32,000 bases of DNA from Horticoccus luteus (GTDB lineage: Bacteria; Verrucomicrobiota; Verrucomicrobiia; Opitutales; Opitutaceae): the NCBI RefSeq assembly GCF_019464535.1, contig NZ_CP080507.1, forward strand, positions 2,670,001 through 2,702,000, given 5' to 3'. The notes beneath the pieces were generated by a model. That model made no database searches. It was given only the letters and a program-made list of their open reading frames with translations, and had not been told where the DNA came from. Below, one piece after another: positions 14,564 through 18,634 of the stretch. The translations under genes were made by a program, and so were the position numbers. Every line of letters begins with the position of its first letter. Position 1 is the first letter of the stretch.

Positions 14564-14618
14564 GGCTAACTCTGAGCGTTCTGCTGCGCCGTAGCGCGCA
14601 GCGGGACGCGGGTTGAAC
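14564..14618 (+). other. attC of cassette 3 (55 nt, short class)
   Basis: R'' is GGCTAAC (14564-70). The stem GCGTTCTGCTGCGC / GCGCAGCGGGACGC includes G-T pairs around a CGTAGC loop, followed by G|TTGAAC (14612-18). It is nearly identical to 19040-19094. Confidence 0.75.
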
Positions 14619-14986
14619 AAGCCCGTTTCGGAGGCGTCTGCGGTTCCGTCCGCCGCTTATGCGTTTTGTATTGGCCGCCAACCGCCGACGGGCGGAGCGC
14701 CGGACGGCGGCATCCTTCGCCGCGCGCGGGCGCGCGTGCCGGTGGCGTCTGTTTTCGCCCGCCGAGAGGGAATCCGCCGCCCGTCGCCGGGGTCGCGAGC
14801 CGTCTTGCGTCCGTCGCGACCAAGGCTTCCGCCGGCGACACGGGGCGCGAGTCGCAATAATATAATAAGTTGGTTCCTGATTTTTATACTCATCGCTGGC
14901 AGAGGGGCGGCGCCCGGGCCTGCCGCGGCAGCGTGCCCACGCGCACGAGCGTGAACCGTTCGCAGTGCGGGCAGCGCAAGTGCCAG
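14567..14986. repeat. Copy A of a ~420-bp direct repeat (partner 19043-19462)
   Basis: My hand alignment gives about 38 substitutions and no indels (roughly 90 percent identity). The repeat covers the attC, about 277 nt of non-coding sequence including a conserved AT-rich island (CAATAATATAATAAGTTGG...TTATACTCAT), and the last ~30 codons of the IS91-family transposase. Confidence 0.85.
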
Positions 14987-16060
14987 CGCGGCGCCTCCGG
15001 CGGCGGTTCCGCGAGCACGATCGGCTTTTGCAGCAGCGTTTGTGTCCGTTGGCGCCCCGAGGGCACCCGCCACCGGCCAGCCCTTCGGGCCAACGCCTGC
15101 GGCGTTGCCATCTCCGCGCTGTCGCGCTACGTCCACCGTCATCCGGCGGCCCTGCGCCGCCGGGTGTAACCAGCCGAAGTAACGCACGCGATGCTGGCCG
15201 GCCGGCGGCACGTGCTGCAAATACCGCCGCAGGAACTCTTCGGCGCCGAGCGTGCACTGCCGCCGCTGCTGGGTCTTCGTGTCGGTATAGTTAAACACCA
15301 CGCGCTCGTCGTCGGCGGCGACGAGGCGCTCGTCGCTGATCGCGGTGCGGCTGACGTAGCGCGCGAGATAGCGCACGACCGCCTCGCCGCTGCCGGCCGG
15401 CTGGCAGTGCACGACCCAACGGCTCCGCCACGTGCCGGCCGGAATCGAAGCGTGCCGCGCCGGAGCGCTCGCGCGCAGCACCGCCTCCATCCGCCCGCGA
15501 AACACCGCCGCCAGCTTCGCCACCGGCAGCAGCCAGTCGCGTTGCCGCGCGTTCAACCATTTTTTGCCGTCGGGGCTGAGCCCGCCGCCGGGCACGATAT
15601 AATGCACGTGCGGATGATGCTGGAGCTGCCGGCCCCAGGTGTGCAGCACGCCGACGAAGCCGAGTTCCGCACCGAGCAACCGCCGCTCCGCCGCGACTTG
15701 TTGCAACGTCGCCGCGCTCTCGCGGAAGAGCCGGTCGTGCATCAACGCCGGCTCGGCGGCGAAGACCGCGCGCAGTTCCTCCGGCACGGTGAACGTCACC
15801 AAAAAATACGGCACCGGCAGCAGCCGCGCCTCCTGCTGCGCCGTCCACGCCGCGGTGCGCTCGCCGCCGCAGCGCGGACACGCGCGGTGGTGGCAGCTGT
15901 GATACGCGAAGTCCGTGCCCGCGCAATCCGTGCAGCGATACACATGCCCGCCCAAGGCGGGCGTGCGGCAGCGGCGGATCGCTGCGAGCGCGCGCCGCGC
16001 CCGCGGCGCGCAACGCTCCGGCACGCGGACGCGCGCCAGCCAGTCGGCGAGGACCGGCAC
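14890..16060 (-). CDS. IS91-family (HUH / Y2 rolling-circle) transposase, apparently frameshifted near 15100-15140
   Basis: It has an N-terminal zinc-binding block YRCTDCAGTDFAYHSCHHRACPRCG, the HUH motif HHPHVHYIVPGGG, and the twin tyrosines RYLARYVSRTAIS. After ...RVRYFGWLHPAAQ the listed frame becomes Ala/Arg/Gly-rich junk that runs on to 14657. The expected C-terminal zinc ribbon (WHLRCPHCERFTLVRVGTLP, stop at 14890) lies in another frame. The combined length of about 390 aa is family-typical. The GTG start is 3 nt after the recombinase stop. Confidence 0.75.
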
Positions 16061-16063
16061 CGG

Positions 16064-17029
16064 TCAGCGTGGTTCGAGCAACCGCGCGACCGCCGCGCGA
16101 GCGTGGCTCTCGTTGACCGCCGTCAGATGCGTATAGATCAGCGTCGTCTCCAGCGAAGCGTGCCCCAGATACGCCGAGATCAGCCGGATCGACACGCCCT
16201 CCTCGAGCAGATGCGTCGCATACGAATGCCGCAGCGTATGCACCACCGTGCCCGCCGGCAGCCGCGCCTCGGCCCGCGCCAGCCGCAGGCAATGCTGCAC
16301 CGAGCCCACGCCCAGCGGCTCGACGGCGGCGGCCAGTTGCGCCGCGCGCGCCGGTTGCTCGCGCCAGCCGCGGCCGACCCCCGGGAAAATCCACCGCGGA
16401 TGCCGGTGCGTCCGCCAGAACGCGCGCAACTCGTGCAACATCGCCTCCGGCAGCGGCACGTAGCGCTCCTTGTTGCCCTTCGCCTCGCGGATATGCACGC
16501 GGCCCGCTTCGCGCAGATCGCGCACCTCCAGGTTGACCGCCTCGCCGATGCGCAATCCGCACGCGTAGATCAACCGCAGCAGTGTGCGGAAACGCAACTC
16601 GCGCACCACCGCGAACAGCCGCGCCATCTCTGCGCGCGTGAGCACGGTGGGAAGTTTTTGCGCTGACGGCGAACGCACCAGGTCGAACAGCTTCCAGTCG
16701 CGCCCGAGGTGCACGCCGAAGTAAGCCCGCATCGCCGCCACTGCGGTTCGCATCGACGAGGGCGAGTAGTGGTGTTCGTCCTTCAACCGCAGCAGATGCG
16801 CGCGGACCGCGGCCTCATCGAGCGCGGCCGGATCGCCCCCGTGGCGCGCCGCCAGCTTGCGGACAAACCGCAGATACTCGGCCTGCGTCGCCGCCGCCAG
16901 CGAACGCAGCCGCATCGTCTCCGCGAAACGCTGCACCGACTCCGGATCGGGTGCGTGGATCTTCCTGGCGCCACCCCGGAGCGTGGACGCGTGCGTGGAC
17001 TCTCTTCCCGTCGATTTTGATTTGGGCAT
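16064..17029 (-). CDS. Tyrosine recombinase / phage-integrase family protein, co-transcribed with the IS91-family transposase
   Basis: 321 aa. It has a SAM-like N-domain ([17 protein letters not shown]) and the catalytic blocks [27 protein letters not shown] and [14 protein letters not shown]. It lacks the IntI-specific insertion, so it is not a second IntI. Confidence 0.9.
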
Positions 17030-17130
17030 AGACCCGCAGCCTTGCCAGCCACCGCCCTCCCGCCCACCCTTCCGCCCGTGCCCCGCCCCGCACTATATAC
17101 ACCCGCCCACCCCCGCCGCGCAGCGGCTTG

Positions 17131-17137
17131 GTTCAAC
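17131..17137 (+). other. R'' box (GTTCAAC) of the large unit's attC, separated from the rest of the site by the IS
   Basis: It is the exact reverse complement of GTTGAAC at 14612-18 and a perfect match to RYYYAAC. Confidence 0.65.
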
Positions 17138-17176
17138 CAGTAGGGATGAGAAGGCGGGTGTATAATCTCCCGCCGT

Positions 17177-18250
17177 ATGAAAACCAAAACCCCTCCTGTT
17201 GAAAAACTAACCGTTGGCTTGGACCTCGGGGACCGCCGCCACCACGCGTGCGTCCTCGATGCCTCGGGCGAGATCCTCGCCGAGGAAGTGATCGTCAACA
17301 CCCGCGAAGTGCTGACCGCGTTCAGCGCCCGCTACCCGGGCGCGACCATCGTGATGGAGACCGGCACGCACAGCCCGTGGATCTCGCGTCTCGTCACCAC
17401 ACTCGGCCACCCCGTCATCGTCGCCAACGCCCGCAAGCTGCGCGCCATCTCGCAAAGCCAGACCAAGTCCGACCGCGAGGACGCGCGGATGCTCGCGCGC
17501 CTGGGCCGCGCCGACCCGCAGCTGCTCAGCCCGGTCCGCCACCGCAGCGAGGACACGCAACGCGCCCTCGTGCGGCTCAAAGTCCGCGAGGCCCTTGTGC
17601 GCAGCCGTGTCAACCTCATCAACTCCGTGCGCTTCCTGCTGAAAAGCCTCGGAGTCTTCGTCTCCACCTCGATCAAAGCCATGGCCTTCACCCGCAAAGT
17701 CCGCGCCCAGCTCGCGCCGACCGACGCTTCCCTGGTCGCCGCGCTGCTCGCCGCGATCGACGCACTCAACGCGCAGATCAAAGCCCTCGACGCCGAACTC
17801 GAAGTCCTCGCCCTCGAACGTTACCCGGTGACCACTCTCCTGCGCCAGATCCCGGGCGTCGGGCTGATCACCGCCCTGTGCTTTGTGCTCACGATCGAAG
17901 ACCCCGCGCACTTCGCGCACGCGCGCGCCGTCGGGCCGTATCTGGGCCTGGTGCCCCGCCGCGACCAATCGGGCCAGACCGACAAGCAACTCGGCATCAC
18001 CAAGGCCGGCCACGCGCAGATGCGCTGCCTCCTGGTCAACTGCGCGCATTACATCCTCGGCCCCTTCGGTCCGCCGGGCGCGCTGCGCACCGCCGGCGAA
18101 CGCATCGCCGCGCGCGGCGGCAAATCCGCCAAGAAACGCGCCGTCATCGCCGTCGCCCGCAAGCTCGCCGTCACCTTGCTCGCGCTGTGGAAAACGGGCG
18201 CCGACTACCACGCCCAACCGCAACCGCAGCCGCTGCCGCAGGCCGCCTGA
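17177..18250 (+). CDS. IS110-family transposase (DEDD recombinase)
   Basis: 357 aa. Supporting motifs are VGLDLGDRRHHACVLD, IVMETGTHS, KSDREDARMLARL and the C-terminal block LLRQIPGVGLITALCFV...LGLVPRRDQSGQTDKQLGITKAGHAQMRCLLV. Confidence 0.93.
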   Translation: MKTKTPPVEKLTVGLDLGDRRHHACVLDASGEILAEEVIVNTREVLTAFSARYPGATIVMETGTHSPWISRLVTTLGHPVIVANARKLRAISQSQTKSDREDARMLARLGRADPQLLSPVRHRSEDTQRALVRLKVREALVRSRVNLINSVRFLLKSLGVFVSTSIKAMAFTRKVRAQLAPTDASLVAALLAAIDALNAQIKALDAELEVLALERYPVTTLLRQIPGVGLITALCFVLTIEDPAHFAHARAVGPYLGLVPRRDQSGQTDKQLGITKAGHAQMRCLLVNCAHYILGPFGPPGALRTAGERIAARGGKSAKKRAVIAVARKLAVTLLALWKTGADYHAQPQPQPLPQAA

Positions 18251-18542
18251 GTCACCCGTCCGGCCACCACCACCCTCAACCCCTTGCCCGTTCCCACCCA
18301 GGTCTGATCCCTTTGGCCACTGCGCTCTAGCGCCAGCGTGAGCCTCACCGCTCAACGCGCTAACCAGTATGCAGGGCCGCCCTTTTCGAGCACCTTGGAT
18401 TCCTCCCTGCACCAGCGCGGCCATTGACGCCGCCACCACGAGTGCGTATGGAAGCCGGACCGTTCGGGAACGCCGCCCCTCCTCCAGAGCCACCAAAAAG
18501 GTGAACCTTTTTCTATATTATTCTCGACACGCCTTCTCATGG
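18251..18542 (+). ncRNA. Candidate seekRNA/bridge-RNA-encoding right end of the IS110/IS1111-type element
   Basis: This is 292 nt of non-coding IS sequence downstream of the transposase, which is the position reported for IS1111-group guide RNAs. It contains CCAGAGCCA (18484-92), identical to the target flank at 18549-57. A weak AAAAAGG-TGAA-CCTTTTT hairpin lies at 18495-18512. No promoter or RNA ends can be defined by eye. Confidence 0.3.
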
Positions 18543-18634
18543 AAGACGCCAGAGCCAACGTCGTGGGCTGTCACGCTGAGTGCTTGCGCACTCATCGCGC
18601 CATCCCCCGCCGTGGCTCATCTTTGACGTTCGGC
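18543..18634 (+). other. Distal part of the interrupted attC, ending in G|TTCGGC
   Basis: The spacer AAGACGCCA matches 8 of 9 nt of the attC1 spacer. GAGCCA (18552-57) plus a bulged A18558 begins a long imperfect hairpin closing on TGGCTC (18613-18), with inner stem CGCTGAGTGC/GCACTCATCG. The spacer ATCTTTGAC is followed by G18628|TTCGGC. The restored site is 99 nt, the same length as attC1. Confidence 0.7.

Follow-up and report, generated by a model that had tools for sequence, protein, structure and literature searches.

An IS91-family element with a tyrosine recombinase gene and attC-like joined ends in the R'' box of an integron attC site

Positions 14570–17136 of the window (the whole 32,000-nt stretch of Horticoccus luteus DNA that was analysed) represent an insertion sequence of the IS91 family, belonging to the subgroup in which a gene for an Xer/IntI-like tyrosine recombinase lies directly upstream of the gene for a Y2 HUH transposase. 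This element, copy A, lies at AA|C in the R'' box (G|TT on the opposite strand) of the attC belonging to the cassette with ORF 14198–14560, and its insertion duplicated no target sequence; the joined ends of the element are attC-like, and there is a good probability that such elements insert as circles by means of their own recombinase. An earlier note, made from the sequence, had proposed a cassette delimited by a complete 99-nt attC of its own; the IS91-type gene pair, the integron array and the attC-like ends of that interpretation are borne out, but the ownership of the 99-nt site is not.

Genes of the element and the surrounding array

The region contains the following features (coordinates, strand, description):
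11422–12350, minus: integron integrase gene intI; NCBIfam TIGR02249, 382.8 bits (cutoff 265), residues 180–486 of ORF 11422–12885
13290–13388, plus: attC1, 99 nt, unoccupied; R'' GCCCAAC ... R' GATGGGC; sequence and fold
14116–14181, plus: attC2, 66 nt; R'' GCCCATC ... R' GTTAGCC; sequence and fold
14198–14560, plus: cassette ORF, 120 aa (ORF list); its attC is the insertion target
14564–14569, plus: GGCTAA, first six bases of the target R'' box, stranded on this side by the insertion
14570–17136, minus: copy A, IS91-family element with recombinase gene, 2,567 bp; delimited by the family-conserved ends and the point where copies A and B cease matching
14570–14624, minus: the element's own attC-like 3' end; architecture conserved in relatives, covariation
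14890–16060, minus: Y2 HUH transposase gene; Pfam Y2_Tnp 1e-55 and Zn_Tnp_IS91; NCBIfam NF033538, 360 bits (cutoff 125)
16064–17029, minus: Xer/IntI-like tyrosine recombinase gene, 321 aa, apparently intact; Pfam Phage_integrase 1.9e-31 and SAM_4
17115–17136, minus: element 5' end, TTGAAC-C-AAGCC, then the small palindrome GCCGCTGCGCGGC
17137–17138, plus: CC, last base of the target R'' box and first spacer base (reconstruction)
17139–18543, plus: IS1111-type (IS110 family) IS in the R''-L'' spacer of the target attC; Pfam DEDD_Tnp_IS110 and Transposase_20; NF033542, 217 bits
18544–18634, plus: remainder of the target attC (L'' ... L', spacer, R' GTTCGGC at 18628–18634; reconstruction)
18641–19039, plus: last cassette ORF; translation has a lipoprotein-like signal peptide after ATG at 18641
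about 19046–19465, minus: copy B, truncated remnant of a second element; 92% identity to 14570–14989, tblastn of homologue C-termini, sequence

The Pfam and NCBIfam matches agree with the pairing of a tyrosine recombinase and an IS91-family Y2 transposase proposed earlier, and the stop-start gap between the two genes (16061–16063) is indeed 3 nt. The R, K, H-x-x-R, H and Y residues of the recombinase are invariant (alignment A3); its best NCBIfam match is IntI, with 158 bits, under the model cutoff of 265, and the nearest solved structures are those of XerA (4a8e), XerD and IntI4. The transposase gene of copy A is frameshifted between 15072 and 15128, where intact 359-aa homologues switch frame in tblastn; the 467-aa ORF is a frameshift artefact, intact homologues having about 359 aa, and the true C-terminus lies at 14890. 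Judging by its reading frame, the gene is a pseudogene, unless the frameshift is a sequencing error, and with a frameshifted transposase gene beside an intact recombinase gene, copy A is probably not autonomous. Upstream of the recombinase gene, where a promoter-like AT-rich segment had been placed, there is a TATATA at about 17093–17098, but no sigma-70-type promoter was called across 14500–17200, and the conspicuous AT-rich stretch (14858–14895) lies downstream of the transposase gene.

A genuine integron surrounds the element, which is co-oriented with intI and inverted relative to the cassettes. The ORF containing intI extends to 12885, and its IntI-homologous part stops near 12350. The R''-proximal 18 nt of attC1 differ from the family target consensus, given below, at 3 positions, and attC2 differs from it at 2; the R'' box of attC2, GCCCATC, is complementary to the start of its own cassette, G|ATGGGC. 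The cassette after attC2 begins with TTAGCC (14176–14181), and a Pfam search of its ORF 14198–14560 revealed no family. In the last cassette the start, TTCGGC (18629–18634), pairs with the R'' box GCCGAAC (19040–19046). Copy B, which did not figure in the earlier argument, occupies the equivalent R'' box position in this last attC of the array; its roughly 420 bp comprise the 3' hairpin, a non-coding tail of about 270 nt and the last 33 or so transposase codons.

Insertion site, element ends and relatives

The hexamer GGCTAA (14564–14569) adjoining copy A is complementary to TTAGCC, the start of the same cassette (ORF 14198–14560). The reconstructed target reads GGCTAA+C, spacer C+AGAC, then GCCAGAGCCAAC, an arrangement with a 5-nt spacer that the other attCs share, and the restored site has the length of 99 nt given previously and the same architecture as attC1, by sequence and fold. 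The insertion generated two hybrid sites, a short one (14564–14618) and one of 99 nt (17131–17138 plus 18544–18634), the latter being the displaced attC of the upstream cassette. The plus-strand layout described in the earlier note, with two such sites flanking the element body, is accurate as a description, but it is a product of insertion and not an original packaging.

The same attC is also interrupted, as had been recognised, by an IS110-family gene (17177–18250), which belongs to the IS1111-type IS located 2 nt from the IS91-type element. Its limits were set by the IS1111-family rules (subterminal repeats with extensions, downstream non-coding region; PMC11187229), here 11-bp subterminal repeats at 17146–17156 and 18530–18540 with 7-nt and 3-nt extensions and a non-coding region at 18251–18529; they give 17139–18543 instead of the previous 17138–18542. 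When this IS is removed, the 5' flank of the element shares 17 of 18 positions with the family target consensus. The non-coding region contains GCTAACCAGTA, which matches the original left junction and not the hybrid one, so the IS may have arrived before the IS91-type element; the later IS91-type insertion may then have taken place with the target motif separated from the crossover point.

The boxes TTGAAC (14613–14618) and GTTCAAC (17131–17137) lie where they had been reported, as does the outward complementarity between GGTTGAACAAGCC (14611–14623) and GGCTTGGTTCAACC (17125–17138), and the same repeats occur in relatives. Since homologous elements elsewhere have exactly these boxes in common, their termini are not unrelated IS91-type ori/ter ends. 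About 160 related loci define the family 5' end as TTGAAC-N-AAGCC and the 3' end as GGCTT-N-GTTCAAC, followed by a 14-bp hairpin, a 5-nt spacer and G. The terminal inverted repeat of copy A is 12–13 bp long (5' TTGAAC-C-AAGCC, 3' GGCTTGTTCAAC), and its 3' end on the minus strand runs GGCTT-GTTCAAC (14624–14612), cc, an imperfect 14-bp stem (arms 14609–14596 and 14589–14576) with a 6-nt loop just beyond the repeat, spacer tcaga (14575–14571) and G at 14570. Alignment A4 indicates covariation in this hairpin: 92% of cells are paired, against 31–37% in slid controls, and 6 of the 14 inner pairs have changed on both sides. Copies A and B have one and the same hairpin despite different host cassettes, the flanking hexamers differing and matching their own cassettes (GCCGAA at 19040–19045 beside copy B is complementary to TTCGGC, 18629–18634), and it is the same among lineage-mates with unrelated 5' flanks (L140, L145 versus L141–146). 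At two loci (L119, L101) it is joined directly to TTGAACGAAGCC, the 5' end, as in tandem or circle junctions. When the two ends are joined, the result resembles an attC (R''-hairpin-R') in which crossover falls at G|TT; the site proper to the element, and travelling with it, is therefore the short hairpin 14570–14624 and not the 99-nt attC. The ends are attC-like and the integron array is genuine, and the cassette and IS interpretations do overlap, as had been suggested. The folded antisense strand of the element was the more stable in 30 of 39 cases and the bottom strand of attC in 13 of 18, a modest asymmetry in both.

The terminal repeats recur, far beyond chance, in relatives from many phyla and many environments, which occupy the equivalent position in other cassette arrays; copies elsewhere had been proposed as a check of integron context, and they were found in such arrays and adjoining intI. 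Among the 164 related loci, the recombinase gene precedes the transposase gene in 124, the 5' motif TTGAACNAAGC-CGCTnnGCGG occurs in 106 and the 3' motif in 68; element length was 2,450–2,581 bp in the 14 relatives measured. The 5' flanks end in G in 67 of 78 distinct cases, and 31 of 73 are within 4 mismatches of the 18-nt consensus GTTSGCTSNRGCGMCTKG (random 18-mers, 0.03%), a sequence corresponding, in reverse complement, to the segment from R'' through the spacer to L'' in attCs of the kind present in the window; about half of the closest relatives have such an attC-derived flank, often within cassette arrays or near intI, and about 40% of 5' flanks are not recognisable as attC. The 3' flanks are mostly TTAGGC, TTAGCC, TTAGAC or TTCGGC, and the reconstructed empty sites fold as canonical attCs. 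In four loci (L102, L103, L147, L117) the attC motif repeats about 500 bp apart in the flanks, always opposite to the element strand, and in L090 and L142 intI is downstream and co-oriented, as in the window, the L090 IntI being 67% identical to that of the window. When ORFs were used to compare the orientation of elements with that of cassettes, the split was an ambiguous 15 against 13 in this high-GC DNA, so orientation rests on attC asymmetry and intI position. In the class 1 integron of the E. coli plasmid pM216_AC2, a relative begins exactly at G|TT of the aac(6')-IIa attC, and the reconstructed empty site was found uninterrupted in 19 other plasmids. More distant clades are located at other small palindromes (L001, L040, L053), relatives with equal ends occur also outside integrons (L001, L002), and the replicons of some family members revealed no sign of an integron.

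Mode of insertion

The element would exit as a circle that the Y2 transposase generates, probably in single-stranded form, as happens with IS91; IS91 makes single- and double-stranded circles, and a specific strand of the single-stranded circle inserts (PMC13181058). Within the circle the joined ends would fold as an attC-like hairpin, and the tyrosine recombinase would swap strands at G|TT with a target of like geometry (hairpin, about 5 nt, G|TT), the preferred targets of this kind being integron attC sites. The enzyme that performs the insertion and makes the junctions is most likely this recombinase. The same element, with the same boundaries, could instead be inserted and excised by the Y2 transposase alone, by IS91-type rolling-circle transposition with hairpin-guided target choice, the recombinase being accessory (it might, for instance, resolve tandem copies or control termination). 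Both terminal repeats (GGCTTGTTCAAC) include GTTC and CTTG, the tetranucleotides that characterise IS91 ends (PMC13181058), and cleavage of the ends could therefore be the work of the Y2 transposase; a palindrome adjoins the 5' tetranucleotide, as at terIS, target duplication is absent, and IS91 itself has an accessory upstream ORF influencing end recognition (PMC13181058). However, canonical IS91 needs GTTC or CTTG beside oriIS, and the targets here (GCCTAA|C and the like) have neither; the palindromes of oriIS are subterminal, whereas the large hairpin is external to the tetranucleotide; it is the recombinase gene of copy A that is intact and the transposase gene that is broken, and a crossover within a G-T-T common to element and target is a signature of integron-type tyrosine recombination, not of HUH joining; we consider sole action of the transposase rather unlikely.

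Perhaps the host integron integrase moves the element between attC sites as a cassette mimic, its own recombinase serving other targets. Joined ends of the form R''-hairpin-R' with G|TT would suit this, as would intI close by in the window, L090 and L142, and the pM216_AC2 element, which is oriented as a canonical cassette and lies precisely at the crossover point of IntI1. The element of the window and essentially all relatives in chromosomal arrays are nevertheless inserted at the R'' end, inverted, and the R'' end in this orientation is not the position of IntI cleavage; the hairpin spacers are of 2 nt and 5 nt, against 5–6 nt in the surrounding attCs, and family members inhabit replicons lacking signs of integrons. 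Transfer by the host integrase appears improbable on these grounds. Still harder to credit, and given very little probability, is that the element is the cargo of a true cassette starting with TTGAAC (14613) and moved with its own 99-nt attC by the integron integrase: a plus-strand unit does begin there, the following R'' GTTCAAC is complementary to that start, and the site has attC1 architecture, but the long attC is not carried with the element, its hairpin varying by locus with only the attC-class motif in common, and this motif is present also at neighbouring cassettes without the element. It is the short hairpin on the other side that travels, the R'' hexamer GGCTAA pairs with the start of the upstream cassette, to which the restored attC belongs, the relatives outside integrons have equal ends, and the empty site of the pM216_AC2 relative is an element-free cassette retaining its attC.

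Comparison with known systems

ISfinder lists IS91-family members with an upstream integrase ORF, ISShvi3 and ISWz1 among them. These two, named in PMC9229058 and PMC11322121, share, by their descriptions, the two-gene organisation of the window element, and ISShvi3 was reported in an integron variable region, adjoining attC; no published description of attC-like joined ends or of systematic targeting of attC R'' boxes was found in the literature. The IS91 family at large (IS91, IS801, IS1294 and the ISCR elements) resembles the window element in the Y2 HUH transposase with an N-terminal zinc-binding domain, absence of target duplication, GTTC/CTTG at the ends and a palindrome beside the upstream end; IS91 is known to form circular intermediates (PMC13181058), which are presumed here. 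The window element differs in the tyrosine recombinase gene upstream of the transposase gene, tetranucleotides located within a terminal inverted repeat of 12 bp, a large hairpin beyond the 3' repeat and a target of G|TT beside a hairpin (attC) instead of a GTTC/CTTG tetranucleotide.

CTX-phi type XerCD integration (mentioned in PMC9345347) likewise employs a hairpin folded from single-stranded DNA as the site for an Xer-type tyrosine recombinase, but it relies on host XerCD and a dif target, without an HUH transposase, and single-strandedness is only presumed for the window element. Integron gene cassettes also have a circular form with an R''-hairpin-R' site, a G|TT crossover, a recombinase of the Xer/IntI group and insertion that yields two hybrid sites with zero duplication; unlike them, the window element is 2.6 kb long with two genes, encodes its own recombinase (158 bits, below the IntI model cutoff of 265), has hairpin spacers of 2 nt and 5 nt and enters at the R'' end, inverted relative to cassettes. 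The IS1111-attC group (ISKpn4, ISPst6, ISPa21) and the group IIC-attC introns are similarly attC-specialised mobile elements with one fixed position and orientation; the former, however, use a DEDD transposase guided by a seekRNA and the latter a ribozyme with reverse transcriptase, and neither imitates a cassette.

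The integron of the window and its insertion sites

The window contains a genuine integron. The ORF 11422..12885 (minus strand) scored 382.8 bits against the integron-integrase model (cutoff 265), and this intI gene adjoins an attC-bounded cassette array, in which the sites attC1 (13290-13388, unoccupied) and attC2 (14116-14181) and the restored third site, attC3, share one architecture: R'', a 5-nt spacer, GCCAsAGmCAAC..., a long imperfect hairpin, ...GGCTsAGC, a spacer of ~6 nt and R'. The cassettes downstream of intI are small, low in GC and on the plus strand, and each cassette opens with a hexamer to which its own R'' box is complementary, as is expected from integron recombination. 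The R box G|ATGGGC (13382-13388) is non-canonical, with AT for TT, and is compensated on its partner GCCCATC (14116-14122); G|AT junctions are also found at element or attC ends in the metagenome loci L087, L117, L089 and L092. At 11251-11320, ~100 nt past the 3' end of intI, a 35-bp unit, CATCCCTGTGGGCCGGGTGCCCTCACCCGGCATCC, occurs twice in perfect tandem.

Features of the cassette array and of the elements inserted in it
13382-13388 and 14116-14122: complementary boxes G|ATGGGC and GCCCATC
14175-14181 and 14564-14570: complementary boxes G|TTAGCC and GGCTAAC
18628-18634 and 19040-19046: complementary boxes G|TTCGGC and GCCGAAC
16064-17029, minus strand: tyrosine recombinase ORF of copy A, 321 aa
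from 16060, minus strand: IS91-family Y2 transposase ORF of copy A, beginning 3 nt after the recombinase ORF
17177-18250: IS110-family gene, between GTTCAAC and the remaining attC-like sequence
19046-19465, minus strand: copy B, comprising the 3' hairpin, a non-coding tail of ~270 nt and the last ~33 transposase codons

The recombinase-carrying IS91-family element (copy A, 14570-17136, minus strand) is located between GGCTAA (14564-69) and the C (17137) of the R'' box in the attC of the cassette ORF 14198-14560, in the orientation opposite to the cassettes; what remains of this attC is C17138 and 18544-18634. There is no target duplication, and the GGCTAA and CC flanks rejoin as one R'' box; the empty target attC would be expected to read GGCTAACCAGACGCC. 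After in silico removal of an IS1111-type IS from the same site, the attC is 99 nt long, and the 5' flank GTTGGCTCTGGCGTCTGG equals the target consensus at 17/18 positions.

Copy B matches the transposase-distal end of copy A (92% identity over ~420 bp, 19044-19465) and occupies the same position in the last attC, R'' GCCGAA|C. The array stops past copy B, and a peptidase M49-like gene (Pfam, 4.8e-11) comes next. Copy B breaks off within the C-terminal codons of the transposase (window 19466-19560), where the array ends, which suggests a deletion or rearrangement begun within the element.

The IS at 17139-18543 splits the target attC of copy A after its first spacer base. IS1111 elements are characterised by subterminal inverted repeats of 11-13 bp, extensions of 7 nt and 3 nt and an extended non-coding stretch after the transposase gene (PMC11187229); the IS in the window has a DEDD transposase (Pfam, NCBIfam), 11-bp subterminal repeats (ATGAGAAGGCG at 17146-56, CGCCTTCTCAT at 18530-40) with extensions of 7 nt and 3 nt, and a downstream non-coding region of 293 nt, and is thus of the IS1111 type. 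Within its non-coding region (18251-18529), GCTAACCAGTA (18359-69) is identical with the junction that the R'' side originally had, GGCTAACC|AGTA, and differs from today's hybrid, GTTCAACC|AGTA; CCAGAGCCA (18484-92) is identical with the right flank. Both segments look like seekRNA-type guide segments, a hint that the IS is older than the IS91-type insertion or tolerates mismatches in the left flank.

Genes, ends and hairpin of the element

The recombinase and IS91-family Y2 transposase genes form the pair that an earlier note had recognised, on the minus strand and with a 3-nt gap. All catalytic residues of the recombinase are conserved in the alignment of the family recombinases. Against the IntI model TIGR02249 it scored 158 bits in two separate matched stretches; since this score is below the cutoff of 265, the recombinase is not an IntI. 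Its nearest solved structure is XerA, not IntI4, and it belongs to the Xer/IntI group. The transposase is a Y2 HUH enzyme with a zinc-binding N-terminal domain (Pfam PF04986, 1e-55, and PF14319, 2.9e-27; NCBIfam NF033538, 360 bits, cutoff 125). Its reading frame in copy A is not intact: 359-aa homologues align in one frame to ~15128 and in another from ~15072 to the stop at 14890, changing frame between 15072 and 15128. The length of the transposase ORF, 467 aa, is due to a frameshift, intact homologues being ~359 aa long. A PDB search found no relative of the transposase, an exact-protein look-up of the recombinase matched no record, an Rfam search of 12800-19700 (E up to 1) gave no match and a sigma-70 promoter scan of 14500-17200 called no promoter. 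An AT-rich stretch, CAATAATATAATAAGTTGG...TTATACTCATCG, directly follows the transposase stop and is kept in both copies (14858-14895 and 19332-19370); it lies inside the non-coding tail of ~270 nt, whose role is possibly oriIS-like or that of a promoter.

Relatives were collected by a tblastn search of the recombinase against plasmids, where such gene pairs were found in Herpetosiphon, Bradyrhizobium and E. coli, by a profile scan covering a single genome of each species (80 loci in many bacterial and some archaeal phyla) and by a metagenome-contig scan, which added 80 closer relatives with identities of 45-88%; many of the loci are short metagenome contigs. In 124 of the 164 related loci, an IS91-type transposase gene directly follows the recombinase gene, co-oriented with it. 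Motif searches, allowing two mismatches and using motifs designed after the first examples had been seen, located TTGAAC-N-AAGC with a small CGCTnnGCGG palindrome, starting ~100-150 nt upstream of the recombinase gene, in 106/164 loci, and GCTT-N-GTTCAA ~350-500 nt past the transposase gene in 68/164; homologues share the boxes of the window element at their ends, a point that the earlier note had proposed to check. The 3' repeat is invariably followed by 0-4 nt, then by an imperfect hairpin (30-110 nt) and a stretch of 4-8 nt whose last base is usually G. Element lengths, measured at 14 loci, were 2,450-2,581 bp (copy A, 2,567 bp).

The 3' site of copy A, read on the minus strand (14570-14624), is GGCTT-GTTCAAC-cc-GCGTCCCGCTGCGC-gctacg-GCGCAGCAGAACGC-tcaga-G, where the spacers of 2 nt and 5 nt are a family trait, unlike the attCs of the window array. 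The hairpins of copies A and B are equal except for one mismatch, and their flanking hexamers differ, each matching its own cassette. The hairpin is also retained among lineage-mates whose 5' flanks are unrelated (L140 and L145 versus L141-L146), and in L119 (~3063-3140) and L101 (~2470-2530 and 4975-5053) the hairpin is joined straight to TTGAACGAAGCC (…G|TTGAACGAAGCC), which is the predicted circle or tandem junction and represents either tandem copies or assembled circular forms; hairpin-after-hairpin repeats are also present in L101. Because the hairpin tracks the element across the two copies, the lineage-mates, these junctions and the E. coli plasmid pM216_AC2, 14570-14624 is the element's own site. 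In the alignment of 14 short-hairpin members, pairing was kept in 92% of cells, versus 31-37% with slid partners, and both sides had changed in 6/14 inner pairs; this covariation indicates a structural constraint on the hairpin. At the fifth hairpin pair (alignment pair 19-44, window 14580/14605), a C·A mismatch, T·G when read on the opposite strand, is conserved in 12/14 members and recalls the strand-marking unpaired bases of attC sites. A reading of 14564-14618 as a plain attC of the upstream cassette was rejected on the 2-nt and 5-nt spacers and the conservation with the element lineage.

The earlier note had described a unit starting with TTGAAC and followed by an attC with the R'' box GTTCAAC, and had proposed that the gene pair either travels as an integron cassette bounded by a complete 99-nt attC or uses attC-like ends. 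The boxes lie where it had placed them (14613-18 and 17131-37), the extended complementarity of the ends is present as described, and the account is accurate for the two hybrid sites; the 99-nt attC is the target cassette's, and the site belonging to the element is the 55-nt one, a short hairpin at the opposite end and on the opposite strand. Because the attC expected to travel with a cassette, the defining test of one, does not travel with the element, the window element is not an integron cassette.

Preference for attC sites among the relatives

The elements prefer attC sites and enter them in a fixed orientation. A G directly precedes TTGAAC in 67/78 distinct flanks, and the preceding 18 nt fit GTTSGCTSNRGCGMCTKG with at most four mismatches in 31/73 distinct flanks (30/57 for the closest relatives), versus only 0.03% for 18-mers drawn at random at these loci; GTTSGCTSNRGCGMCTKG is the reverse complement of R''-spacer-L'' in attCs such as attC1 (three mismatches) and attC2 (two) of the window. 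The hexamer that follows the element is in most cases TTAGGC, TTAGCC, TTAGAC or TTCGGC, the complement of R'' boxes; the 3' junction was taken at the first G or A before TT after the hairpin. Reconstructed empty sites fold as canonical attCs, e.g., L159, GCCTAAC-catgc-...-ttgggtc-GTTAGGC, where clear single-hairpin solutions only were considered. In the sequence flanking the elements of L102, L103, L147 and L117, the attC motif repeats every ~500 bp, each time on the opposite strand from the element, and an intI gene lies downstream of the element and co-oriented with it in L090 (its product and the window IntI being 67% identical), L142 and the window. Copies elsewhere do lie within integron arrays. 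Array orientation is based on the attC asymmetry and these three intI-containing loci; judged from ORFs, the orientation of the elements with respect to the cassettes came out at 15 versus 13, the high GC content making this test uninformative. The conserved 18-nt 5' flank was also considered as part of the element and rejected, as it occurs at element-free neighbouring cassettes and is absent from ~40% of copies.

Element and target have G-T-T in common at the crossover, and there is no duplication; the G|TT crossover with hybrid sites is found in the window, in copy B, in the class 1 integron relative (L003) and in dozens of other loci. The class 1 relative, on the E. coli IncC plasmid pM216_AC2, begins precisely at the crossover G|TT in the attC of aac(6')-IIa, and its own hairpin precedes the aadA4 cassette; after in silico removal of its 2,581 bp, the remaining sequence gave a continuous alignment with 19 other plasmids, in which the aac(6')-IIa/aadA junction is uninterrupted. 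This insertion has the opposite orientation and a canonical R' crossover. A near-identity DNA search of plasmids found this relative in pM216_AC2 only. In L085 (~6365-6440), a hairpin is followed by G|TTGAAC and then by cttcagaG|TTAGGC; here an orphan TTGAAC and a second copy of the spacer precede the target hexamer, possibly the footprint of an earlier event.

Distant clades have small palindromes of other kinds as their targets, likewise at N|TT: L001 (a Herpetosiphon plasmid), L040 (a Clostridia chromosome) and L053 (Verrucomicrobiae), with such targets as ATAAAAgag|TTTTAT and GCACATAagttgtg|TTATGTG. Since these distant members insert beside non-attC palindromes, hairpin-adjacent TT targeting may be ancestral and the specialisation for attC limited to one clade.

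Possible mechanism and relation to known systems

By gene organisation, the window element is filed as a member of the integrase-carrying IS91 subgroup; IS91-family members with an upstream integrase ORF, e.g., ISShvi3 and ISWz1, are present in ISfinder, and the two-gene organisation is already known. A full-text literature search revealed no account of attC-like joined ends, of a conserved hairpin or of systematic R''-box targeting, the only relevant item being a passing remark on ISShvi3; a description in ISfinder or TnPedia is possible.

Tentatively, with a confidence a little short of even, we read these features jointly as those of a distinct and widespread hybrid class, in which the HUH transposase of the integrase-carrying IS91 branch would produce a circle and the Xer/IntI-like recombinase would insert it through an integron-style G|TT crossover, the joined ends being an attC mimic and a large clade invading arrays at R'', on the arm and in the orientation unused by IntI. 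In the most likely mechanism, the Y2 transposase would make a circular copy, probably single-stranded, as in IS91, for which single- and double-stranded circles are documented and one single strand is insertion-competent (PMC13181058). The junctions of L119 and L101 are a hint of such circles, though equally compatible with tandem copies. The joined ends, expected to read ...GCTCAGAG|TTGAACCAAGCC for copy A, would fold into an attC-like site, and the recombinase of the element would exchange strands with a target of like shape (hairpin, ~5 nt, G|TT). The antisense strand of the element gave the more stable fold in 30/39 cases and the attC bottom strand in 13/18, both modest effects.

Two rival explanations concern the same element and differ from the proposed mechanism in the enzyme only. 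The Y2 transposase alone could be responsible for movement, as in canonical IS91, where oriIS abuts a GTTC or CTTG target tetranucleotide and terIS has its own tetranucleotide and a subterminal palindrome (PMC13181058). The presence of GTTC and CTTG inside the terminal repeats of the family favours this rival, and a palindrome follows the 5' repeat; the flanks are TTAGGC and similar, and the absence of these tetranucleotides from the targets counts against it. Movement by the host IntI fits the class 1 case, and is opposed by the inverted R''-side insertions and by the non-integron hosts. Insertion by the element's own recombinase would give a role to the long-unexplained integrase ORF of some IS91-family members, as the present data suggest, and would offer a testable case of the HUH and tyrosine recombinase chemistries, otherwise separate, cooperating in one small element.

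Integrons are a main bacterial route for collecting and reshuffling adaptive and resistance genes. An attC-homing element with its own recombinase and an attC look-alike can separate a cassette and its recombination site, give rise to hybrid sites, terminate arrays, as at copy B, and pass from chromosomal arrays to clinical class 1 integrons or back; one relative lies on an IncC plasmid, flanked by aac(6')-IIa and aadA4. If the joint reading is true, the integrase-carrying IS91 branch could shuffle or inactivate cassettes; it would be a third attC-targeting kind, beside the IS1111-attC elements and the group IIC-attC introns, and the only one of them that imitates a cassette.
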